Positions 264 to 47,068 are shown, counted from the stretch's first letter. The stretch: DNA of 47,237 nt from Candidatus Nanoarchaeia archaeon (GCA_041479965.1 JBGOZE010000002.1:1-47237); one strand, 5' to 3'. Notes: generated from the sequence alone by a model not told the origin. Program-made: numbers and translations.

Positions 264-264
264 A

Positions 265-381
265 CGCCCCGGCCGGGATTCGAACCCGGGTCGAAGCCTT
301 GCTGTGCATTCAACCATTAATGATGATTAATGATTATAATCCTCGACAGGGCTTCATGATAGGCCACTACACTACCAGGGC
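265..381 (-). tRNA. tRNA-Asp(GTC) with one roughly 44-nt intron at or near the canonical 37/38 position
   Basis: Minus strand reads GCCCTGG-TA-GTGT-AGTGGCCTA-TCAT-G-AAGCC-CTGTCGA-[intron]-GGCTT-CGAC-CCGGG-TTCGAAT-CCCGG-CCGGGGC-G. The acceptor pairs 7/7 with one G:U. The T-loop is TTCGAAT and the anticodon loop is CTGTCGA. Confidence 0.9.
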
Positions 382-795
382 ACTCTGTGCGCGTGCTGAA
401 TGAAGTTGAATAATGATTGTTATTGGATGTTGTTAATAATATAGAGCCGTGGCTCTTTCCTTCTTGCGTATTACCTTTAGAAACTTCCTGCCCCTCCAAA
501 CATTTTTTCCGAAATCCTCTCCGCTAGCCTGGCTATGATATGATAATATCTATATATTACCAGTTAATGCTGGGAATTCTGGAAAAGAGTTCTGAGCCAT
601 TTATAAAGCTTGCGGTTTATTACAGGTTGAGTTTAATACCCCAATGCTTTGCATCGATTGGCAATACACAACCTGTAATCTCAAAAATGCCGGTCGCGAA
701 GCGAACAATTCGCGTCATACTCCGGAGCCTGCTCCGATTGGGTTAGTGAATTGCAGGCATTTTTGTTGATTTTATGCTATTTCTTCTTCCTGGCC

Positions 796-13150: not shown

Positions 13151-16100
13151 TTAGTTAGCGTTCGATGTCGCTACGCAAGTAGCTTTTAATGTGCGCCCGC
13201 TGCCTGTGAACTTGACTTTGCAGTCATTCGGGAATATATTACGTTCATTATTCTGCCAATCAGCGGTTACGCATTTTGCCATTCCTAAGGCGTCTCGTGT
13301 GCTCGTAATTTTTATGTTACCACAGTAAGTTGCTGCTGTGCAGGGAGACTCATCAGTCTTGCCATCACAATCATTGTCCTTGTTATCACAGGTCTCTGTT
13401 TTCGCCCCTGCGAATGGATTGCAAGTGTCTCCTCCCCATACTCCTGCTGTGCAGGTCTTAATGCCTTTGTTGCCTGAGCATATTCCTTTTCCGCAAGTTG
13501 TTGCTTTAGTAAGGCTTTCATCAGTTAAGCCGTCACAGTCATTGTCCTTGTTATCACATATCTCGGTTTTTGGTGTTCCTGCAACACAGCTGTTTTTCTC
13601 AACTCCACTTACGCAGGTCTTTTGCCCTGTTTTTGCGCATACTCCCAGCCCGCAGTTGGTTGCTGTTGGGACATAACCTTCATCTGTTTGCCCGTTGCAG
13701 TTATTATCTAGGCCGTCACAATTATTGTCAGTTAGTGCTGGTGTTCCTGCTACGCATGCTGTTTCTTGTCCTGCTACGCATGTTGATGCTGCATTTGATA
13801 ATGCACATACTCCTGGCAGGAAGCAGCTTGTTATTGCTACGTAATCTTCATCTGCTGTTCCGCTGCAATCTTCATCTAATCCATTGCAGTTAGCGTCGTT
13901 TGCTGCTGGTGTTCCAGTCTTACATGCTGTTTCTACTCCTGCTGTGCAGCTTGATGCTACGTTTCCTGCAGCGCAAACTCCTGGTAAGAAGCAGCTTGTT
14001 ACTGGTACATAGCCTTCATCTACCGCATTGTTGCAGTTGTTGTCTATTCCATCGCAATTATTGTCAGTTGCTGCTGGTGTTCCTGCTACGCATGAGTCTA
14101 CGATTCCGCCGCTTACGCATGATGTTGTTCCTGCTGCTGTGCATGCTCCAACTCCACAAGTTGTTGGTAAGCTTACATAATCTTCATCAGCTACTCCGGA
14201 GCAATCATCATCTATACCATCACAAATGGCGTCAGTTGCTCCAGGATGTACTGCTGCGTTTGCGTCATTGCAGTCAGTAGCATCTGCTACATATCCTGTT
14301 GGTGCTATGCAAGCTAGTTGTGTTACAAGAACATTTCCGTAAGTATCACTGTCTAAGTCTTGGTAAAAGGTGTTCTGTACTCCGTTATCTACTGTTCCGT
14401 CACAGTCATCATCAACATTGTTGCATGTTTCTGTGGTTGCTCCAGCGAATGGATCACAAGTGTTATCTCCCCATGTTCCTGCTGTGCATGTTTCGATTCC
14501 AACATTGCTTGAGCAAGCTCCTAGTCCGCAACTGGTTGATCTTGTTAGGCTTTCGTCAATGTTTCCGTCGCAATTGTCATCAAGGTTATTGCAAGTCTCA
14601 GTTGCTCCTGGATGAACATCAGCGTTGTTATCGTCGCAATCGCCAGCTGCGACAGTATAACCATCGCCATCTGCATCAATGGGCTCGCACTTGTATATAT
14701 TCACTGCTAAGCTTCCTGAGTTATCACCATACCATCCTTCAGTTGGGATTCCAGTGTTTGAATCTCCGTCAAACACTCTGAACTTAACAGCTGAACCTGC
14801 TCCAATCATGCTGTTAGCGTAGATGTGACTTGAGTAATATGTTCCCCAATCAACAAATGCATCATTAACCTGCAAGTCAAATGAGCCTTCACCTAGGAAG
14901 TAAGGATCGATGTCGTATCCATCTGTAAATGTTGCCCAGTTGTCATTGCTGATGTATTCTGCATCAGCAGCATTGTTGCTGTTCTGCCAGGTTCCTAATG
15001 CTACAAATAGGTAGGTTTTGCCGTTTTCCAAGGCAGCGCTGCTTGCACCTAAGACGTCATTGGCTGGGACAGTAATTGTCTCAACAAAGGACTTTCCAGT
15101 GCCATCAGGGCATGAGCCATCGCCAGTGCAGCCCTCATCTTCTGTTCCGTCACAATCATCATCTGCAAGGTTGCAGATTTCTATTGGTGTTGTAGGAGTT
15201 AGTGCGTTACACACAGTTCCTAACGTATCTAAAGTGCAGACATACACTCCTGTATTGTAAGCACCGCAGTCATTAGTTCCGCTGTTGCAAGATTCTCCGA
15301 CATTGAATCCGTTGTCGACTAATCCGTCGCAATCATCATCCAAGCCGTTACATGCTTCTGCTGTTTCGGTTCCTCCTATGCAGCTGTCTACTTCAGAGCC
15401 ACCTACGCATGTCATTGAACCTGTGCTTGCGCATACTCCAACACCACATGTAGTTGCATCATTGAGCCAATCCTCATCCCATCCATCATTTGTGGCTGAG
15501 TTGCAGTCATTGTCTATTCCGTCACATAAGTCGAAAATGTTGCCTGTGTTGTCTGATGAGCAATCCGGTAGGCCGCCAGTGCAAGTGAATGTTCCTTCCT
15601 TGCATAAGTCAGTGTCAGCTCCATCACATGCAGTGCCGTGCCATGACGCATCAACTCCATCTGGTGAGTTTACGTCACAATCGTCATCAACATTGTTGCA
15701 CTCTTCTGGTGCGAATGGATGAGTTGTTGGTACTGCGTCATCGCAGTCAGTATTGTCTGCTATGTATCCTGCTGGTGGTGCGCATGCTAGTTGTGAAACC
15801 TCATTATCTCCATAACCATCACTATCTGCATCGGCATAGAAGTTTATCTTGACACCTTCGTCAACACCAGTATCGCAGTCATTATCTAATCCATCACATA
15901 CTTCTGCTGCGTTTGGATGTACAAACTCATTGAAGTCATCACAATCTCCACATGTTGATGCATAGCCATCTCCATCAAGATCATTTCCATCATGGCTTAT
16001 TTCTCCTGCTGAAGTGCAAGTATTAGCATCTTCATCACAAGCTGATGTGAAAGCAGCTCTGAGGTCCCACGTGTAGTCATTATTATCTGGGTCATTGAAA

Positions 16101-19100
16101 CAGTCTGCGATTTCAGGCATATTAAATCCTGTGCAGCTCATTGCAGTCTTCTGAACACATAAACCACCACCGTTGCACTGGTCTTCTGCTGAGCAGAAGT
16201 TACCGTCATCACATGTTGTTGTGGAAGGCGCGAATCCATTTGCTGGGCACAGATCGCTTACTCCGTCACAACTCTCAGCAACATCACAGTCTCCTGCTGA
16301 TGCTCTGCAAACAGTTGTTGAAGGCTCATTATTAGTTAAGCAGCTTCCTGCTCCGTCACAAGCATCTGGTTTTGTGCAGGCAGTGCTAGCTGAGCTCCCA
16401 CAGCTAGTTCCTACTGTTTTGAACCCATTATCTGAACATACTCCTGCTGTGCATTTATCTTGATTTATGCATTCTGAGCCTGCATCACCGCAGTTGTTGC
16501 CATCAGTTGAGCAGACACTCCAACCACCAGCAGAACAAGTTTGAGTTCCAGCGCACACGCCTGAGCCGCAAGCTTGAGTTATGCTTTCATCAACAGAACC
16601 GTTACAATCATTATCCTTATTATCACAAGTTAATTCATCTAGTTCATAATAGGCAACAGATGAATAATCATCAATCCATCCATTTGAACCATCACAATGT
16701 TGAATAGAACCTAAACAAACACCATCCTGCATTGTATTTAATCCTGGAGTCAAACCATTGTCAGCTGAACCATCACAATCATTGTCATTTCCGTCACATA
16801 CTTCTGTTGCTGGCCCTACAGCAGTGCATCCTGTCCAACCACCAAGGTCTGTGCATGTTTCTGTCCCAAAGGCGCATTCTCCAATATCAACACCACACGG
16901 CTGGGATAAGGATTCAGAACCATCCAAGACTCCGTCACAATCATCATCAAAACCATTACAAGATTCTACATTGTTGCCTGTCGTGTCTGAACAAACTTGA
17001 TCACCAATACACTGATATGTTCCTTCCTGACATAAATCAGTATCAACACCATCACAAGCAGCACCAAACCATGCTTCGCTAGCACCGTCAGCAGTTGCAC
17101 CATTACAATCATCATCAAAACCATTACAGATCTCAGATGCACCAGGATGAATTGCAGCATTACCATCATTACAATCACCGTTATTTGCTACGTATCCTGC
17201 TGGCGCAACGCATGCTAGTTGTGTTACAAGAACATTTCCGAAGCCATCTGAGTCTGAGTCTTGGTAGAATGTTGTTTGGACTCCTTCATCAGTTTGTCCG
17301 TCGCAGTTATCATCTAATCCGTTGCAGGTTTCTGCTAAAGGCTCATAATTTGATGAACTGTCAAGCCAGATTTTCTCCCAGGGCTTTGCTGGATTTACAA
17401 GACATTCCTTAACATTATCTGAACATGCTCCTTGTATATTATCAGAAGGAATTGTTCCTAGGCCATCATCTATCTGTCCATTACAGTTATCATCTTTTGC
17501 GTTACATGTTTCTGGTAATGCTTTTCTTCCTGGAACATCAGCAGGAGTAGTAAAAGTCCAATAGCAGTTACAATTTGCAGCACTCAAACTACCGCCATCA
17601 TCAATTTTTCCATTACAATCATCATCTACTCCGTTGCACGTGACGTCATGACCGGCCGGGTTAACATTTACATCATTATCGTTGCAGTCATCATCATTTG
17701 AAACATATCCGGCAGGCTGGCTTACTGAATAAAGAGAATCGCTTGGGTCTCCGTAAGTATCGCCATCTCCATCATGATACCAAAGGGACTCGGTCTGGCA
17801 AGTTGCAGAGCATCCATCTGCAGAATTAGTATTGCCATCGTCGCATTGCTCACCAGATTCGATAAAGCCATTGCCGCATGAAGGTGCATCACAAGCGTCT
17901 CCAATTCCATCTCCATCCAAGTCAGCTTGGTCAGCATTAGAGACTAGCTGGCAATTATCTGCGCCATCTCCTACACCATCGCCATCATCATCAGAATCAC
18001 AAACATCTCCTTGTGCATCTCCATCAGTATCTAATTGATCTGCATTAGGATTCATAGGGCAATTATCCACGGCATTAGCAATTCCATCGCCATCAGTATC
18101 GCCATCGCAATCATCACCAATATTATCACTATCAATATCAGACTGTGTTGGATTGCCTATGAAATGACAATTGTCGTCGCAATTGGTGATCTGCAAGTGA
18201 TCACAGAGGTTGTTACCGATAATTCCGTCGCCATCACCGCTGTCTAAGACTCCGTCATTATCGTCGTCAGGGTCAACGCAGTCAGCTATTCCGTCTGGTT
18301 CATTGTCAGGGAATCCTTCATCAGTCTGTCCATCACAATCATTGTCTACGCCATCACAAACTTCTTCTGTTGGGACACAGCTTGCAGCATGCTGACATCC
18401 TAATGCTATATCACAGGTATCTGTTGTTTGTATATCATTATCATCACAATTCACTTGCGTATAGCTGCAGCTTATCATATTATTATTATCTATTGTACAT
18501 GCATCAGCATCATCACAACTTATTATATTAAACATACATCCTATTCCTGGAACGCATGAATCAGCAGTATTAGCATTGTTATCATTACACACAACATTTG
18601 TGTGTGTACAGACATTATTTACATTTGCATCTGTAGTGCATACATTATTATCATTACAATTTGTATAAACGCATCCTATCGAATTATCACATGTGTCTAT
18701 TGTGTCTGGATTGTTATCAAAACAACCTACTGGCAAACACATGCAAAAAGTTCCCGTCCAAGCACAATTTATACATGCATTAGGTGAAGGACAAGTACTA
18801 GCGGTATGCACGCATCCTGTTAAAGGATTGCAACTGTCTGATGTTCCAGGATTATTGTCGTCGCAGTTTATAGGTGTATTCATGCATCCAAATGGTCCCA
18901 GGTTAGCATCTGTAGTGCATGCATTGCCATCATCACAATTTGTTGGTGTATAGCAGTATATATTGCCTGTTGTCGGATGGTTTTGGCATGTTCCTAATCC
19001 ATTGTTGCACGAGGTATCTATGGCCATAGGAAAATGCTGGCATGTACCGAAGCAGGCATCAGTTGTGCATTCATTCCCGTCAGGACTGCAAGGACCACTA

Positions 19101-19300
19101 ACAGGCAAGTATCCCAAACATGTGTCGCCAATCCATCCGATGCATTCAGATCCACATTCTGCCTTTACAGCTGTTGCCAATAACATCAATCCAAATATAA
19201 AAACTAATATAAGATATGCTTTCTTCATTTTATTTCCCTCCAAACGTTTTAATGAGCGTGATATATTCTTATTATAGATATTACCAGTGTTTGTTTTCAT
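13151..19300 (-). CDS. giant secreted cysteine-rich repeat protein (about 2,025-2,049 aa), adhesin-like
   Basis: One uninterrupted ORF.
- Signal peptide [23 protein letters not shown] if translation starts at ATG 19228. Both ATG 19300 and ATG 19228 have a GGAGG about 8 nt upstream.
- N-terminal CxDxNxCTxDxC repeats.
- TSP3-like Ca-binding repeats ([35 protein letters not shown]).
- One [27 protein letters not shown] myxococcal-type repeat.
- More than 20 MopE-like motifs (DCNDxxxxxxPGAxExCNGxDDDCDG).
- One Cys-free domain of about 140 aa. Confidence 0.9.
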
Positions 19301-19605: not shown

Positions 19606-19822
19606 TCCCCGCCCCCGGACTCGAATTTCCCAAGCTTGCGAATGCTTTCTTAGTTCGGAGGACTTAACGAAGTTAATGTCCTCCTTAAGTTTTTCCCTTA
19701 AGGCTTTCGCAAAGGCTTACCAGGAACCTCTCGGGCACTGCTGACCGCATTTCATTCATACTCTTGCGAGTTTGTCTTGCGGCATCTACAGCCAAGTGCT
19801 CAAACCGTTAAGCTAGGCGGGG
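19606..19822 (-). tRNA. tRNA-Tyr(GTA) with two introns (about 50 nt after the anticodon loop; about 94 nt between T-stem and T-loop, position 53/54)
   Basis: Minus strand reads CCCCGCC-TA-GCTT-AACGGTTT-GAGC-A-CTTGG-CTGTAGA-[50 nt]-CCGAG-AGGTT-CCTGG-[94 nt]-TTCGAGT-CCGGG-GGCGGGG-A. The spliced product is exactly 73 nt with all stems paired. The C1:G72 pair is the archaeal/eukaryal Tyr identity pair. TATA (complement of 19847-19857) lies about 30 nt upstream. Confidence 0.85.
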
Positions 19823-19900
19823 TTCTTAGCAGTATGAAAAATACTGGGTTTATAAAAGTTTTGCAAATAGTTCAGTTATAATTGAAAGAAAAAAATATTC

Positions 19901-20758
19901 TTATTCTGTCTTGTACGTCAGGTTGACGCTGTTGGAGTAGATTGTCCTCTCCTTGCCTTTTCCTGTGTCAAAGGTCACTTTGGCGTCTGGAAGCCTGATG
20001 CCTCCGATGAGGGTAAGCTTGCTTTTCACCCTGTAGGATATGATTCTTTCTTCGTAGGGTTCCAAAGCGTCCATCTCCCATCTCGGCACTGTGCCTCTCT
20101 TGCCTTTGCCTATGCTTACTGGCTCCATGCTTCCCAGGTGAGTTGTCCTGTCTATCTCTGCGATGTGAGGCACGAAGTCTATCACTCGTAGGTTATGCAC
20201 TGGCTTCCTGGCCCTGTTCTTGAGGTAAAGCCTTACCTTCACTTCACTAAGGCCGTCCTTGGTCTGTCCCATTGGCTCTGCGTTCTTCATTATCACTATC
20301 GGGCTCCTCCAGACGTAGTAGAATATCACTGCCAATATCAATAGGATTATCACCAGCACGAGCATCCTGTAATCAGTGACCATGCTTCCGGCAAGGGTTT
20401 CCTGCGGGTCCAGGGTTTGGCGTATCACATAGTAGCTCTTGCCATCAAGCCCTTTCTCTTTCACAGCATCTGGCGTGAACTTGGTGAAGAGCCTCTTGAT
20501 GAGGTTCACAGAAAAGCTCTTCTCTGCCGTGGCTGGCTGGTTGCCGTTGTTGTAGATGGTGAAGCGCTCTTCTGTCCTGAATAAGAAGGTGTTTTTGGAT
20601 GATTTCTCCTTGAGGTCAGAGTAGCCTTGCACGTCGAATTCTGCTGATGCTTCTGCTACGTTCTTATCATTATAGTACAGTTGGAGTGTCAGGGTCTTGG
20701 TTCCTGGCTTGGTGAGCGGGTCCACAGAGAAAAGCACCTCGTTGGTCTTCTCTTCCAA
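19901..20758 (-). CDS. C-terminal half of a COG1470/CARDB-like surface protein (TM plus beta-sandwich domain); probably not an independent gene
   Basis: The track start is a TTG with no SD or TATA. It is in the same frame as the ORF at 20795-21355, separated only by one TAG (20795-20797) and 12 sense codons. The first internal ATG is more than 120 codons in. Confidence 0.5.
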   Translation of the reverse strand: MEEKTNEVLFSVDPLTKPGTKTLTLQLYYNDKNVAEASAEFDVQGYSDLKEKSSKNTFLFRTEERFTIYNNGNQPATAEKSFSVNLIKRLFTKFTPDAVKEKGLDGKSYYVIRQTLDPQETLAGSMVTDYRMLVLVIILLILAVIFYYVWRSPIVIMKNAEPMGQTKDGLSEVKVRLYLKNRARKPVHNLRVIDFVPHIAEIDRTTHLGSMEPVSIGKGKRGTVPRWEMDALEPYEERIISYRVKSKLTLIGGIRLPDAKVTFDTGKGKERTIYSNSVNLTYKTE

Positions 20759-20794
20759 TGGCAGTAGCTTGGTGGTGTATTCCTTGGAGAATAT

Positions 20795-21355
20795 CTATCC
20801 GTTCAGCACGACCTTGATATTGTCCAGCTCTCTTGGGTTCCTATTCTTAAGTATGAGGAGCACAGAGACTTTCTGCCTCGGGTCTATGGCGTTGTCAATT
20901 GATATTACTGGCGTAACAGTAGGGATGTATTCTCCAGGCCCAAGGTCAGGTGAGACCACGTAGATGGCGAATTTCTCCCTTTCTTCATAGTAGAAGCCTG
21001 TCTTCTCAGACTTAATCTTGACAGGTATGAAGTAGGTCTTCATCTCATCCACTGTGAGCTTGGGGTTGAATTCGAGAAGGAATTTCATTTCTCCATGGGC
21101 ATTGATGTAGCTTGATTGTGGGTCTATGTTGAGGACCCAGTTCACGTCTCTAGTGCTTATGGTGAAGTAATCATCATAGTCTGCTGTGTTGCTGATTATG
21201 AGCTCGAAATAGGCTGTCTCTTCCTTGGTGATGGTGTTATTGAGGACATTCACAGAATAGGCAAACGCTGACACTTGCGCAGCTGTAGAAATAATGATTA
21301 TCAATGCAGTCAAAAGTAAGATAGATAACCTGTATGCGGCTTTATTACCCACCAT
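20795..21355 (-). CDS. N-terminal half (signal peptide plus beta-sandwich domains) of the same surface protein, ended by an in-frame TAG
   Basis: Signal peptide MVGNKAAYRLSILLLTALIIIISTAAQVSA, then FELIISNTADYDDYF and LILKNRNPRELDNIKVVLNG strands. The ORF stops in the middle of a domain. Confidence 0.55.
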   Translation of the reverse strand: MVGNKAAYRLSILLLTALIIIISTAAQVSAFAYSVNVLNNTITKEETAYFELIISNTADYDDYFTISTRDVNWVLNIDPQSSYINAHGEMKFLLEFNPKLTVDEMKTYFIPVKIKSEKTGFYYEEREKFAIYVVSPDLGPGEYIPTVTPVISIDNAIDPRQKVSVLLILKNRNPRELDNIKVVLNG

Positions 21356-21451
21356 GACACTTCGCCTCCTTGCCTTATTATATACTCCTAATCTTAGATT
21401 AATCCATTTATATACCTTTCTATTTTCAAGCTGAGAAATCCTTCACAAAAC

Positions 21452-21871
21452 CTATTTTTTGTTCCTAAGCCTGTAGATATCCACCCATTTGTCAGGCTGC
21501 GACTTGAAGGATAGCTTTTTCACAGTGTTCTTTATGTTCTCATGGATTGCGGGCCTGTGGTGCTCGAAGTAGCGCAAATAATACATGCCTAGGGTTGAAA
21601 GGGTGTAGAGCATGACTGCCACGCCTGACAAGACAAAGAAGATTGTGAAGAGCTTTGAGGTCGGAGTGGATGGTGTGAGGTCTCCGTAGCCAATGGTGGT
21701 CATGGTGACTGTTGAGAAGTATAATGAGTCTATGAAACTCCAGCCTTCAAGATGGGAATACATGATTGAGCTTCCTATGAGCAGGACAAAAACAACTGCC
21801 AGCAAGGAGAATATCTTGTGCCTAAGCTTCTTCTTCTCACCGTCTTCCTTAGAGGTTATGAAATCATCCAT
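21452..21871 (-). CDS. minimal two-TM potassium channel (KcsA-like pore only)
   Basis: The selectivity filter TMTTIGYGDL lies between two TM helices. The protein is 139 aa with no RCK or ligand-binding domain. Confidence 0.9.
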   Translation of the reverse strand: MDDFITSKEDGEKKKLRHKIFSLLAVVFVLLIGSSIMYSHLEGWSFIDSLYFSTVTMTTIGYGDLTPSTPTSKLFTIFFVLSGVAVMLYTLSTLGMYYLRYFEHHRPAIHENIKNTVKKLSFKSQPDKWVDIYRLRNKK

Positions 21872-21935
21872 TGCTGCTCTTTGCGAAGCTAGTATTTAAA
21901 AACTTTTTGACAGCCACACATACTAAAAAATCTGA

Positions 21936-22143
21936 TGGGGCCGCGGAGACTTTCGGGATTCTTGCACTTTTGGTAATTCGGAGGACTTAACGAAGTTAAT
22001 GTCCTCCTTAATTGCTTTTTACCAGATTTTTTGCAAAAATCTGTTCGAACTCCGGTTACTACCACCCCAAGGTAGAATGATAGTTGCTTCCAAGCAACCT
22101 CAAAAACAGAGGTTTTTGTTGGACCAAGCTACACTACGGCCCC
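21936..22143 (-). tRNA. tRNA-Pro(GGG) with two non-canonical introns (about 38 nt in the D-loop; about 94 nt in the T-loop near position 59/60)
   Basis: Minus strand reads GGGGCCG-TA-GTGT-AGCTTGGTCC-[intron]-(C)TA-TCAT-T-CTACC-TTGGGGT-GGTAG-TAAC-CGGAG-TTCGAA-[intron]-T-CTCCG-CGGCCCC-A. The acceptor, anticodon and T stems are all Watson-Crick. G37 fits Pro. TATA (complement of 22169-22180) lies about 32 nt upstream. The exact D-loop intron borders are ambiguous. Confidence 0.75.
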
Positions 22144-28991: not shown

Positions 28992-29182
28992 CAGCCCCGT
29001 GGTGTAGCGGCCAAGCATACCGGACTTTGGAAGTGCAGGAAGAGAAGCCTGTGCTGAACACATCCGTTGACCCAGGTTCAAAAGAGATTTTTGCGAAAAA
29101 TCTCGTAAAAAGCAGGCGACATTCGCCTACGGCGAAGTCCCCTTACGAAAAGCAAGATCTCATGAAACTCCTGGCGGGGCTA
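28992..29182 (+). tRNA. tRNA-Gln(TTG) with two introns (about 31 nt canonical 37/38; about 87 nt in the T-loop near 59/60)
   Basis: AGCCCCG-TG-GTGT-AGCGGCCAA-GCAT-A-CCGGA-CTTTGGA-[intron]-TCCGT-TGAC-CCAGG-TTCAAA-[intron]-T-CCTGG-CGGGGCT-A. The spliced length is 73 nt. A1:U72 is typical of archaeal tRNA-Gln. There is one C27:U43 mismatch, so a Pro(TGG) reading cannot be fully excluded. Confidence 0.75.
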
Positions 29183-29338: not shown

Positions 29339-29752
29339 ATGATAAAGGAAAAATTAAAGCAAGATCAAGGGTTATTGGTGCTCTGGGCTGCTAAGTGCGC
29401 TGAGCATGTGCTTCCCTATTTCGAGAAAGAATATCCTCGAGACGATCGACCTAGCAAAGCCATTGAAGCAGGGCGCGCTTGGGTGCGTGGTGAGATAAAA
29501 ATGAATGAAGTTCGTGCTGCTGCAATTGCAGCTCACGCTGCTGCTCGTGACTGCGAGCATTCTGGGGCTCGTGCGGCCGCGCGTGCATCTGGTCACGCTG
29601 CTGCAACTGCTCATGTTGTCACTCACGCCCCTCATGCTGCCAATTATGCTGTTACTGCCGCCGAAGCTGAAGGTATCGTTGGAGAGCGCGAGTGGCAATT
29701 TCGACATCTTTCAAAACGCCTTCGGCCAGTAATGAAAAAGTTAGTGAGATAA
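29339..29752 (+). CDS. Ala/His-rich helical repeat protein; resembles a bacterial family I recall being annotated as putative (Imm5-like) immunity protein
   Basis: 137 aa: ...LWAAKCAEHVLPYFEKEYPRDDRPSKAIEAGRAWVRGEIKMNEVRAAAIAAHAAARD...ARAAARASGHAAATAHVVTHAPHAANYAV. SD AGGTGA about 10 nt upstream. It is visibly more GC-rich than its surroundings. The family assignment is from memory and unverified. Confidence 0.6.
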   Translation: MIKEKLKQDQGLLVLWAAKCAEHVLPYFEKEYPRDDRPSKAIEAGRAWVRGEIKMNEVRAAAIAAHAAARDCEHSGARAAARASGHAAATAHVVTHAPHAANYAVTAAEAEGIVGEREWQFRHLSKRLRPVMKKLVR

Positions 29753-37285: not shown

Positions 37286-37414
37286 AATTTCCCTCCTTAA
37301 TCCTCACCTTAACCGAGGTTTCATATTGATTGTATAATTAACCTTTGGTCTTACTCTTTTAATATATAAAGCTTTTGTTTTTCGTGCATAATTCCTGATA
37401 AAGCCCTAAAATGA

Positions 37415-46061: not shown

Positions 46062-46793
46062 ATGAAGCGGGTCATCACCAAGGACAGCAGCATCACCTTC
46101 TACAATGAGGAATACGGCGAGACCTATCATTCAGTCACAGGAGCTGTGGAGGAAGCTTTCAGGAAGTTCGCGGAGCCAGCGCTTATAGCTACCAAAGGCA
46201 AGAGCCATGTCAGAATCCTCGATGTGTGCTTTGGTCTGGGATACAATTCAGCAGCTGCAATTGATGAGATTCTCAAGCAGAATATAAATTGCGAAATCAC
46301 CATTGTCGGCTTGGAAAAGGATGAGAAGGTACTTGAGCAGATAAAAAATCTGGAGCCGATGATAATCAGCTATCCCGTAATAAAAGACATGATTGAGCAC
46401 AACTACAAGTACGACCGGAACGGCATAAAGATTGACCTATTGATCGGCGACGCCTTGGAAACAATAAAGCAGGTCAGCAAGGAAGTGAAAAAATCCAAGG
46501 AAAAAATCGACAGTTTCAATAAGAAACTTCAAAAACAAGGTGTTTTTGACATCATCTTCCTGGACCCTTTCAGCCCAAAGAAGAATCCTGAGCTATGGAC
46601 AGAAGAATTCTTCAGAGAACTAAGAAAATTAATAAAGCCAGACGGCATACTCACAACCTATTCCTGCGCAGGACAAGTGAGGAGAAACCTCAAAGCAGCA
46701 GGATTCACAGCCAAGGACGGGCCATGCGTAGGCAGGAGAAGCCCGTCAACAATAGCATTTCCGCAACAATTATTAGTAAGTGGGACTAAGTGA
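46062..46793 (+). CDS. MnmC-type SAM-dependent methyltransferase domain protein (Methyltransf_30-like)
   Basis: ITFYNEEYGETYHS, ILDVCFGLGYNSAAAI and DIIFLDPFSPKKNPELWTEEFFREL...DGILTTYSCAGQVRRNLKAAGF. Confidence 0.75.
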   Translation: MKRVITKDSSITFYNEEYGETYHSVTGAVEEAFRKFAEPALIATKGKSHVRILDVCFGLGYNSAAAIDEILKQNINCEITIVGLEKDEKVLEQIKNLEPMIISYPVIKDMIEHNYKYDRNGIKIDLLIGDALETIKQVSKEVKKSKEKIDSFNKKLQKQGVFDIIFLDPFSPKKNPELWTEEFFRELRKLIKPDGILTTYSCAGQVRRNLKAAGFTAKDGPCVGRRSPSTIAFPQQLLVSGTK

Positions 46794-46888
46794 GCGTAGC
46801 GAACGCATGTCGCACACCTTCAAACGAAGCAGATCTTCGTTGTCCCAAAAGCAAAAGCTTTTGTGATACCAGATTTTGTGAAATCTGT

Positions 46889-46962
46889 GCCCCTGTGGTA
46901 TAGCTTGGATAGCATGAGAGCTTGCGGAGCTTTAGACCTGGGTTCAAATCCCAGCGGGGGCG
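46889..46962 (+). tRNA. tRNA-Arg(GCG), intron-less
   Basis: GCCCCTG-TG-GTAT-AGCTTGGATA-GCAT-G-AGAGC-TTGCGGA-GCTTT-AGAC-CTGGG-TTCAAAT-CCCAG-CGGGGGC-G, 74 nt. There is one A:C mismatch in the D-stem. Confidence 0.8.
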
Positions 46963-47021
46963 TTTTCACGAAGTGAAATAAGCAACTGCTGGCTCAAAAA
47001 CAGTCAAGTGTTTTTGCCTGT

Positions 47022-47037
47022 CAGCAGGGGCGTTTTC
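47022..47037 (+). repeat. pseudo-copy of the tRNA-Arg 3' end
   Basis: CAGCAGGGGCGTTTTC against CAGCGGGGGCGTTTTC at 46952-46967. One mismatch, same orientation, 70 nt downstream. Confidence 0.65.
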
Positions 47038-47068
47038 GCGCAGTAGAATAAACCATTATGGAAAATTC

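Follow-up and report, generated by a model that had tools for sequence, protein, structure and literature searches.

The window analysed in the present work, that is, the whole stretch of 47,237 nt of DNA from Candidatus Nanoarchaeia archaeon (GCA_041479965.1 JBGOZE010000002.1:1-47237), harbors three tRNA genes (tRNA-Tyr, tRNA-Pro, and tRNA-Gln) whose T-arm introns belong to one and the same family. The members of this family represent, in our opinion probably, a non-autonomous mobile intron of 86-99 nt of the bulge-helix-bulge (BHB) type, which, according to the predicted folds, is probably cut out of its host transcripts by the tRNA-splicing enzyme of the cell. A sequence-only reading of the window had described the three introns as homologous and had interpreted them as mobile and possibly as carriers of a conserved RNA; the family turned out to be far wider than these three introns, and that interpretation is partly supported.

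The window was compared to a set of loci outside it, labelled L002, L010, L033, and so on. The family was searched for with a covariance model built from 30 copies (R1) and with two scans of sequence collections. In the genomes of GTDB species representatives (one genome per species), the query was the exact 28-mer GATTTTTGCRAAAAATCTNGTAAAAAGC, common to the Pro and Gln introns; in the JGI metagenomes, the anchor was the linker plus the type-A second hairpin described below, hairpin 1 being left out of the pattern.

The element, its copies in the window, and its distribution

A standard copy begins, from 5' to 3', with a 5' arm, N-AGAUUUUUGC, followed by a loop run of 1-5 nt and by the local complement of the arm, AAAAAUCU-N' (together, hairpin 1). 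Then come an A-rich linker, GUAAAAAGC, a second hairpin, variable in sequence yet always pairing, the motif UUAC-N'' or a variant of it, which pairs with N'GUAA or UCUCG, a short A-rich stretch, and a 3' tail that is the complement of the 5' arm. When the host is an RNA gene, the tail is followed by a four-base adaptor complementary to the end of the 5' exon and by two further bases. The 5' module can be written as the hairpin NAGATTTTTGC-R-AAAAATCTN' plus GTAAAAAGC. Different types of second hairpin occur: type A (GGCGAC...GUCCCC) carries a C.C mismatch that is conserved, and its upper stem is of three kinds, another type reads GUUCAAG...GRACC, and type C has the form (A/G)UU(U/A)AAGGAGG...CCUCCGAA(A/U)(U/C).

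Without an intron search, ARAGORN detected one of the five tRNA genes of the window (tRNA-Arg). The tRNA identities were assigned by cutting the introns out in silico by hand and submitting the product to ARAGORN; once two introns per gene had been removed, cloverleaves of Tyr(gta), Pro(ggg), and Gln(ttg) were obtained. tRNA-Tyr(GTA) (19606..19822, minus strand) has a canonical intron at about 19784-19735 and a T-arm intron at 19719-19626; tRNA-Pro(GGG) (21936..22143, minus strand) has a D-arm intron at about 22116-22077 and a T-loop intron at 22043-21950; tRNA-Gln(TTG) (28993..29182, plus strand) has a canonical intron at about 29032-29062 and a T-loop intron at 29083-29168, which had been placed one base too early (29082). 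A short-word BLAST of all seven window introns against the window retrieved two significant cross-matches only, Pro-Tyr (35/35) and Pro-Gln (28/30), and the other (first) introns are unrelated.

The R1 model recognizes all three T-arm introns with significant scores, in agreement with the proposed homology. Copy 1, at position 53/54 of tRNA-Tyr (19626..19719, minus strand; 94 nt; 42.5 bits, E ~6e-6), is diverged and consists of hairpin 1 AAGCCUUUGCGAAAGCCUU, an A-rich linker, a type-C second hairpin, and the 3' tail CGCAAGCUU-GGGA-AA. Copy 2, at position 59/60 of tRNA-Pro (21950..22043, minus strand; 94 nt; 73 bits), shows hairpin 1 at 22043-22023, the linker GUAAAAAGC at 22022-22014, a 35-nt block at 22011-21977, UUACC at 21976-21972, the tail at 21971-21956, and the adaptor CGAA at 21955-21952, then AG. 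Copy 3, at position 59/60 of tRNA-Gln (29083..29168, plus strand; 86 nt; 70 bits), has the type-A second hairpin GGCGAC...GUCCCC, UUACG, the tail GCAAGAUCUC, and the adaptor UGAA, and is identical in the JGI contig Ga0534151_0000418. The suggestion that all three introns start with the same hairpin is true of Pro and Gln, which share 28/30 nt (E = 2e-7), while the Tyr version is diverged and contains one C.C mismatch. The AAAG..CAAG-like 3' ends that had been noticed are real and represent the strand that pairs with the 5' arm of the intron.

On the sense strand, a run of five T lies in hairpin 1 of every standard copy, and so within a tRNA gene (22039-22035 and 29088-29092 in the window), and oligo-T is the archaeal termination signal. 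The trailer of tRNA-Pro, TCAGATTTTTTAG (21934-21925), resembles the 5' arm of the element, CAGATTTTTGC; hairpin 1 may have originated in connection with tRNA terminators.

Outside the window, the exact 28-mer was found at 26 places on 24 contigs of metagenome-assembled genomes (MAGs), most of which are titled Woesearchaeota, Nanoarchaeota, or Nanoarchaeia; five are titled "uncultured Methanosarcinales", and mislabelling is suspected for them. The scan of the JGI metagenomes yielded 23 more copies, 18 of which have the exact arms AGATTTTTGC...AAAAATCT, with a closing pair that is always complementary; since hairpin 1 did not belong to the pattern, the recovery of these arms is independent of the query. 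Moreover, R1 retrieved further diverged copies in the compared loci. The host genes include at least tRNA-Val(TAC) (in L004 and apparently in L018), Leu(CAA), Lys(CTT), Thr(TGT), Pro(TGG, GGG), Gly(GCC), Ala(GGC), Ser(GGA), Gln(TTG), and Tyr(GTA), and the positions occupied are 59/60 (25 strict cases, see below), 53/54, 37/38, and the D loop. A standard copy also lies in a hairpin loop of domain V of a 23S rRNA (L033, 231-325), between ...AUCCUGGCCGUGCAGAA and GCGGCCAAGGGU...; the LSU model scores 529 bits there, with about 92 extra bases at the element. Every copy inside a tRNA or rRNA gene is in sense orientation. At both gathering and permissive thresholds, Rfam 15 returned nothing beyond tRNA and LSU rRNA from the window and the loci, and no description of the element was found in Rfam 15 or in the literature searched. 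Judging by the sequences retrieved, the family is specific to Woesearchaeota-type DPANN archaea.

The 35-nt block TTCGGAGGACTTAACGAAGTTAATGTCCTCCTTAA, reported by the sequence-only reading as identical in the Tyr and Pro introns, is indeed exact at 19654-19688 and 21977-22011 (letters of the plus strand, the host genes being on the minus strand), 2.3 kb apart, and represents the type-C second hairpin of these copies (for copy 1, 19654..19688, minus strand). It folds as had been proposed, with GGAGGAC pairing with GUCCUCC and UUAAC with GUUAA around one bulged A (-15.3 kcal/mol, z = -5.1). No further copy with up to three mismatches occurs in the window, the expectation from shuffles being 0. 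The short distance between the two copies, their exact identity, and the clear divergence of the rest of both introns would fit a purely local event, that is, a duplication or gene conversion that took place recently between tRNA genes lying close to each other, or an assembly artefact. Nevertheless, we consider this explanation very improbable. The same hairpin occurs with 34/35 identity, and one wobble change, in another tRNA (L013), and in tRNA-Pro(TGG) of L016, where two of its base pairs have changed in a compensatory manner (C-G to U-A and A-U to C-G), and the family is spread over dozens of genomes and metagenomes. The JGI contig Ga0534151_0000409 carries both copies, in identical Tyr and Pro genes and with one base differing over 1521 compared, so that the artefact can be set aside. 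L013 lies on a contig of the same MAG as L010 (Woesearchaeota MAG Zod_Metabat.1155), whose PGI-like protein is 76% identical to that of the window, with local synteny; the organism of the window belongs to this kind of archaea. Given the L013 and L016 sequences, the Tyr/Pro identity mainly reflects the conservation of a module and is not good evidence of a recent local duplication; an additional gene conversion of the module between the two neighbouring introns is possible.

Predicted splicing geometry and conservation of the core

In the minimum free energy (MFE) folds of T arm plus intron, both the Pro and the Gln copies exhibit a BHB with two 3-nt bulges separated by a 4-bp helix. In Pro, the outer helix is CGGAG:CUCCG, the central one UUCG:CGAA, the 3' bulge AG/U (the slash marking the splice site), and the inner helix is formed by the 5' arm and the tail; in Gln, the outer helix is CCAGG:CCUGG, the central one UUCA:UGAA, and the bulges are AA/A and AC/U. 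In both of them, T-loop bases 54-57 are embedded in the central helix and the 5' splice site falls after A58-A59. A strict parser, which demanded a T-stem of 5 bp followed by UUCR and two bulged bases, then a tetranucleotide complementary to UUCR with two bases and one base after it, and finally the complement of the T-stem, accepted 25 of 50 copies, all of them in the 59/60 register and with introns of 86-99 nt. In these copies, the adaptor follows the host (19 TTCG:CGAA and 6 TTCA:TGAA); since TTCA hosts carry TGAA and not TCAA, the similarity flanking the introns is due to pairing and not to target duplication. By inspection, the adaptor at 37/38 of tRNA-Gly(GCC) is GCAA or GUAA, opposite UUGC in the anticodon loop, and at 53/54 it is GGGA or GGGG, opposite UCCU or UCCC; the latter position is occupied in the window tRNA-Tyr and, by a standard copy, in tRNA-Ser(GGA) of L019. 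For two copies, the one in 23S rRNA and that of tRNA-Tyr, the search for a strict BHB yielded relaxed motifs only. The removal of the element restores a recognizable RNA in the three cloverleaves mentioned above, and the LSU rRNA model spans the insertion of L033.

On the basis of these folds, the bases at the end of the exon would be paired with the adaptor (in the T loop, as UUCG:CGAA or UUCA:UGAA), the T-stem would act as the outer helix and the arm:tail duplex as the inner one, and both splice sites would lie in 3-nt bulges with the 4-bp helix between them. The host splicing endonuclease and RNA ligase could remove the element from the transcript, and an insertion removable in this way would be harmless; the element would survive in essential RNA genes by bringing its own inner helix and a short adaptor. 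For tRNA-Pro, the predicted exon-exon junction after the removal of the intron is ...GGAGUUCGAA/UCUCCG..., and the predicted junction of the circular intron is ...CCCGAAAG/CAGAUUUUU.... The sequence UUCRA is present in almost every tRNA; hence, a copy adapted to 59/60 would fit any tRNA with at most one base change, which may account for its presence in Tyr, Pro, Gln, and many others. In DPANN archaea, splicing endonucleases (EndA) with an insertion in the L3 loop are associated with more tRNA gene disruption (PMC5829648).

The structure of the element was analysed on an R1-based alignment of 56 copies, with 500 shuffles and slid controls. In hairpin 1, pairing amounts to 99.3%; changes on both sides are seen at six of the nine pairs, and the closing pair is GC in 28 copies, CG in 21, and UA in 2; none of the 500 shuffles reaches the covariation observed, and the slid controls are 38-58% paired. 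The N':N'' pair of P2 is C:G in 10 cases, G:C in 6, a G:U wobble in 1, and unpaired in 2. The sequence-only reading had left it between covariation and strict conservation of the hairpin: the pairs of hairpin 1 and the N':N'' pair covary.

The excised introns are predicted to fold as rods (z = -6.8 for Pro, -3.9 for Gln, and -3.9 for Tyr), in which the 5' arm pairs with the 3' tail and not with its local complement; the non-intronic copies, devoid of the tail, form the local hairpin. The 5' hairpin proposed for the RNA is conserved as such, but its left arm would be engaged with the tail in the excised intron. Both pairings of the arm are thus kept, which may point either to a switch with a function or to what is left of a triple repeat.

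The suggestion that the introns enclose a conserved RNA is supported as well: the sequences of hairpin 1 and of the linker and the structure of hairpin 2 are kept across many species. Comparison of the copies suggests that the core, made up of hairpin 1, linker, and hairpin 2, is conserved far beyond the need of splicing; indeed, these lineages also have T-loop introns devoid of the core, of 21 nt (L020) and of about 70 nt (L044), which implies that splicing does not need it. This, in turn, would imply that the core is probably recognized by something, either a protein moving or stabilizing the element or some molecule with which the RNA interacts once excised and, probably, circular.

The 21-nt T-loop intron, AGGCAGGAAATGCCGCGGAAG, is present in L020 and L041, and together with that of L044 makes position 59/60 appear as a general intron hot spot in these genomes. 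The second tRNA of L045 (GGCTTTTTCGCGAAAAAGCC...) harbors an intron subfamily whose hairpin 1 is similar to the window Tyr version. For the L045 copy, a circular permutation, and with it a circular intermediate, was considered; its left arm turned out to contain an insertion and its tail to be a direct copy of the arm, which is not decisive.

Probable movement of the element and alternative explanations

The presence of related introns at non-homologous tRNAs had been taken as a sign of mobility, and the occurrence of the element in at least 9 different tRNA species, at four tRNA positions, and in 23S rRNA supports this idea of a spread between genes; similar introns at different tRNA identities and positions are what is observed for transposed introns. 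Near-identical tRNA-Gly(GCC) genes carry the element either at 37/38 (L020, L029, and L044) or at 59/60 (L017), and in L028 and L035, too, tRNA-Gly(GCC) has it at 37/38. The T loop of the same gene is empty in L029, contains the 21-nt intron in L020, an unrelated intron of about 70 nt in L044, and the element in L017. Furthermore, L014 and L027, that is, different tRNAs of different genomes, have introns that differ at two bases only, both in the apical stem of hairpin 2. In L010, a copy is embedded in an insertion of about 200 nt downstream of the PGI-like gene, and the syntenic spacer in the window has none.

Direct repeats of the start or the end of the adjacent gene flank the copies that lie outside RNA genes (L012, 3080-3320; L007, 6575-6730; L039, 1000-1110), and direct repeats of the tRNA 3' end flank copies in L024 (1240-1500) and L025 (3200-3430). 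In L012, the first 17 nt of a GH57-like ORF, ATGGTAAGTGTATGCTT, are present in three copies, with two different hairpin elements in tandem between them; in L007 and L039, the repeats correspond to the last codons of convergent genes. No flanking direct repeats were observed for the intronic copies. When 641 ORFs, taken from the window and from L002-L027, were compared all against all, no recurrent protein family was disclosed beside the copies, which suggests that the element is non-autonomous, and the Pfam search of the window neighbours found ordinary genes only. The sequences thus show the family membership, the covarying structure, the BHB geometry, the distribution, and the differences between genomes in the sites that hold a copy, while any way of moving and any role of the core are inferred.

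The insertion of L010 (1712-1926, compared to 37286-37414 in the window) is 215 nt long and has a 12-bp terminal stem ending in U6 (z = -6); it holds the element and a third hairpin (GTGCTACCGAGCAAATCAAGTTTGCGAGTGTAGCAC), which recurs in L037. It may represent an RNA gene in its own right or, alternatively, a terminator hairpin into which an element has been inserted.

The main alternative to a mobile intron is a hitch-hiking small-RNA gene. According to this hypothesis, which we regard as possible though not the likeliest, the core is a functional non-coding RNA (e.g., protein-binding or a scaffold) and its place in an intron is a means of expression: it would be transcribed from tRNA promoters and freed by EndA from introns, or by RNase Z or RNase P when located in trailers or spacers. 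This is compatible with mobility, and the two explanations may hold together. The right arm and the linker are conserved in sequence, although unpaired in the rod and not needed for the BHB, and the variation of hairpin 2 preserves its structure across several subtypes common to different species, as expected of such a gene. Some copies begin exactly at a tRNA 3' end (L025 and L024), and the L022 copy is located between two tRNA genes; the copy of L003 is preceded, at a distance of about 45 nt, by a TATA-like box. These features, the inclusion of the L010 core in the 215-nt fold, and the coreless introns, whose splicing would not need it, point in the same direction. However, no Rfam family matches the core, C/D boxes are absent, no K-turn was recognized by eye, and many copies per genome, with differing second hairpins and some of them degenerate, look more like a repeat than like a gene; antisense and intergenic copies with direct repeats (L024, L007, and L039) are also ill-suited to a need for expression.

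Those intergenic copies are instead what one would expect of a palindromic repeat acting at the DNA level and similar to repetitive extragenic palindromic (REP) sequences or miniature inverted-repeat transposable elements (MITEs). Here, the hairpins would be DNA sites for a recombinase or nuclease encoded in trans, or cruciform or single-stranded DNA hairpins; the element would insert within genes or beside them, and copies in the loops of RNA genes would have survived only where a BHB happened to be available. The 5' arm and the 3' tail are terminal inverted repeats (NAGATTTTTGC versus GCAARAWCTN; in L039 the end is AAAAATCTG), and the L039 copy is bounded exactly by CAGATTTTT...AAAAATCTG, with a 14-bp imperfect direct repeat flanking it. 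Gene ends are directly repeated around L007, L012, L024, and L025, modules related to the hairpins are found repeatedly between genes in these genomes, and the 3' end of the window tRNA-Arg is duplicated about 60 bp downstream. We nonetheless judge it unlikely, in that all the copies in RNA genes are in sense orientation and have a host-matched adaptor at the exact BHB register, which insertion blind to RNA would not yield; moreover, the lengths of the direct repeats are inconsistent, and no associated transposase emerged from the comparison of the 641 ORFs.

A mobile intron might also be guided by its own RNA. In this more speculative scenario, taken as a whole rather doubtful, the excised intron would be a circular rod of about 90 nt whose adaptor (CGAA, UGAA, GCAA, or GGGA), placed in the closing loop, would re-form the BHB in trans with a target (UUCR of the T loop, UUGC of the tRNA-Gly anticodon loop, UCCY of the T-stem, or the rRNA loop); it would be inserted by reversal of the endonuclease and ligase reactions and fixed in DNA via cDNA or recombination, point changes of the adaptor retargeting it.

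Some observations weigh against the mobile BHB intron that we favor. Both scans of the collections relied on fixed sequence patterns, so that part of the seeming invariance of the searched parts is ascertainment. The strict conservation of the right arm and the linker, unpaired in the rod, is not explained by a purely selfish intron and suits a functional RNA at least as well. The repeats flanking the non-intronic copies measure about 11, 14, 17, and up to about 55 bp, and no single known transposition chemistry fits them. Neither the neighbour ORFs nor the Pfam search of the window revealed a linked transposase, reverse transcriptase, integrase, or homing endonuclease. Similarly, IMG/VR gave 0 matches for either module and the phage and plasmid collections no BLAST matches, on which grounds a viral or plasmid origin was rejected. 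Concerning the geometry, in both the Pro and the Gln copy one additional base is left unpaired across from the 5' bulge, and the BHB of Tyr (53/54), drawn by hand and not an MFE structure, is relaxed (UCCU:GGGA, bulges GG/U and AA/U) and without an outer helix; its splicing would need an endonuclease of relaxed specificity. Finally, we infer splicing, excision, and circularization from predicted structures.

Other known classes were considered and rejected. The three introns contain no C box (RUGAUGA), relaxed C box, or D box (CUGA), contrary to what a C/D-box guide RNA would require, and the Rfam snoRNA matches (E > 0.4) are far below gathering and outside the introns. ACA occurs once per intron, in the middle of the second hairpin, and neither an H/ACA pocket nor a K-turn was seen by eye. 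A homing-endonuclease or group I intron does not fit, 86-99 nt being too short for the ORF of a LAGLIDADG or other endonuclease, and no Rfam intron matched. In the case of a palindrome-associated transposable element (PATE) derived from IS200/IS605, the two hairpins are unrelated in sequence, hairpin 1 begins 0-2 nt from the boundary, and there is no common upstream tetranucleotide (the transposase was not sought genome-wide). By eye, the consensus and geometry of integron attC sites and of IS200/IS605 ends do not fit either. The varying repeat lengths disagree with casposon-like target duplications of 14-15 bp, and the differences between the repeated gene 3' ends of L007 and L039 are not limited to A positions, as opposed to those of diversity-generating retroelements.

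Concerning the other features of the window, a hairpin similar to that of the introns had been noticed in the leader of tRNA-Arg(GCG). The sequence CAGATTTTGTGAAATCTG is present at 46871-46888, but the R1 score of the region (46780..46888) is weak (13.4 bits, E = 2.6, minus strand) and not significant; the region is a possible degenerate and rearranged remnant. Its minus strand aligns to hairpin 1 and linker of L010, and on the plus strand about 46807-46837 matches "TGTAGCACCCCTTTCAAACGAAGCAGAGCTT" of L010 at 27/31 aligned positions; these roughly 110 bases, with scrambled element-like pieces, look like a decayed remnant, and the hairpin is at best part of a degenerate copy. At 46950-47060, the 3' end and trailer of tRNA-Arg(GCG) (CCAGCGGGGGCGTTTTCACGAAGTGAAATAA) are repeated imperfectly about 60 bp downstream (GTCAGCAGGGGCGTTTTCGCGCAGTAGAATAA), with an A5/T5 hairpin between them, which looks like the scar of an insertion into a tRNA 3' end.

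The fifth tRNA gene (264-382, minus strand) is an intron-containing Rfam match (265-381); by eye, it is a tRNA-Asp(GTC) with a canonical AT-rich intron of about 43 nt outside the element family, and ARAGORN with introns allowed labels it tRNA-Ala(agc) with a 44-nt intron. A 2049-aa protein with MopE-type metal-binding and thrombospondin type 3 repeats (13151-19300, minus strand) adjoins tRNA-Tyr, and an Imm5-like immunity protein (29339-29752, plus strand) adjoins tRNA-Gln, both unrelated to the introns. The ORF at 19901-21355 (minus strand) is split into pieces of 285 and 186 aa in the window, while the JGI and Logan assemblies have one 484-aa gene there, with a single base differing over 1521; the split reflects either an error of sequencing or assembly or a gene that became a pseudogene very recently.

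Relation to known introns and significance

The closest precedent is represented by the transposed tRNA introns of Thermoproteales, which share with the element the occurrence of similar introns in different tRNAs. Those introns are mostly short (tens of nt) and similar within the genomes of one crenarchaeal order, whereas the element is 86-99 nt long, has a two-hairpin core and a 5' module of 28-30 nt identical across many DPANN species, prefers the T loop, and is found also in 23S rRNA and outside RNA genes. As summarised in PMC4090602, Fujishima et al. (2010, Mol Biol Evol 27:2233) attributed them to gain by transposition through an unknown mechanism; according to the same summary, the BHB requirement may define which targets are possible.

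Likewise, the rRNA BHB introns of Thermoproteales and their ORF-less derivatives are gained and lost between close relatives, being spread by homing endonucleases or remnants of such spread, and sharing with tRNA genes is not reported for them (PMC4496867). The element resembles them in having one copy in 23S rRNA and differs in being ORF-less and the same in tRNA and rRNA genes. For Caldiarchaeum, Sugahara et al. (2012) presented a model that links the gain of tRNA introns to mobile DNA, with tRNA genes disrupted by integrating elements, the case concerned being a 1.8-kb element encoding a recombinase (PMC3293823). The duplicated tRNA ends at insertions (L024, L025, and the window tRNA-Arg) recall that model, while the element is about 90 nt long and has no associated protein gene.

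The BHB intron of archaeal tRNA-Trp carries a box C/D guide RNA, is released by the endonuclease, and is often circularized. It is similar to the element in that a conserved RNA is embedded in a BHB intron; the element, however, has no C/D boxes, is not bound to one tRNA, is multi-copy, and has a variable second hairpin. Bacterial repeats such as REP, bacterial interspersed mosaic elements (BIMEs), and MITEs are short, multi-copy, hairpin-forming, non-coding, and intergenic, have inverted termini, and depend on RAYT or IS transposases. The element shares with them the short multi-copy hairpin repeats, the inverted termini, and the intergenic copies; to our knowledge, they are neither spliced from RNA by proteins nor provided with host-matched splice adaptors.

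The element may explain tRNAs overlooked by standard finders in these genomes. In a 2026 preprint on complete Nanobdellota genomes, tRNA-Trp and tRNA-Val are "missing" in some orders, split genes being considered; heavily interrupted genes are an alternative explanation, and tRNA-Val(TAC) hosts the element in L004. If the RNA-guided scenario were true, it would provide a defined transposition mechanism for archaeal protein-spliced introns and would represent a viroid-like selfish circular RNA with genomic copies. The family offers a handle on the gain of tRNA introns in archaea, through recognizable modules in many genomes, at four tRNA positions and in 23S rRNA, with filled and empty sites in close relatives and a host-matched 4-nt adaptor that can be tracked. 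Lastly, its conserved core points to an RNA-protein or RNA-RNA interaction in organisms with minimal genomes.

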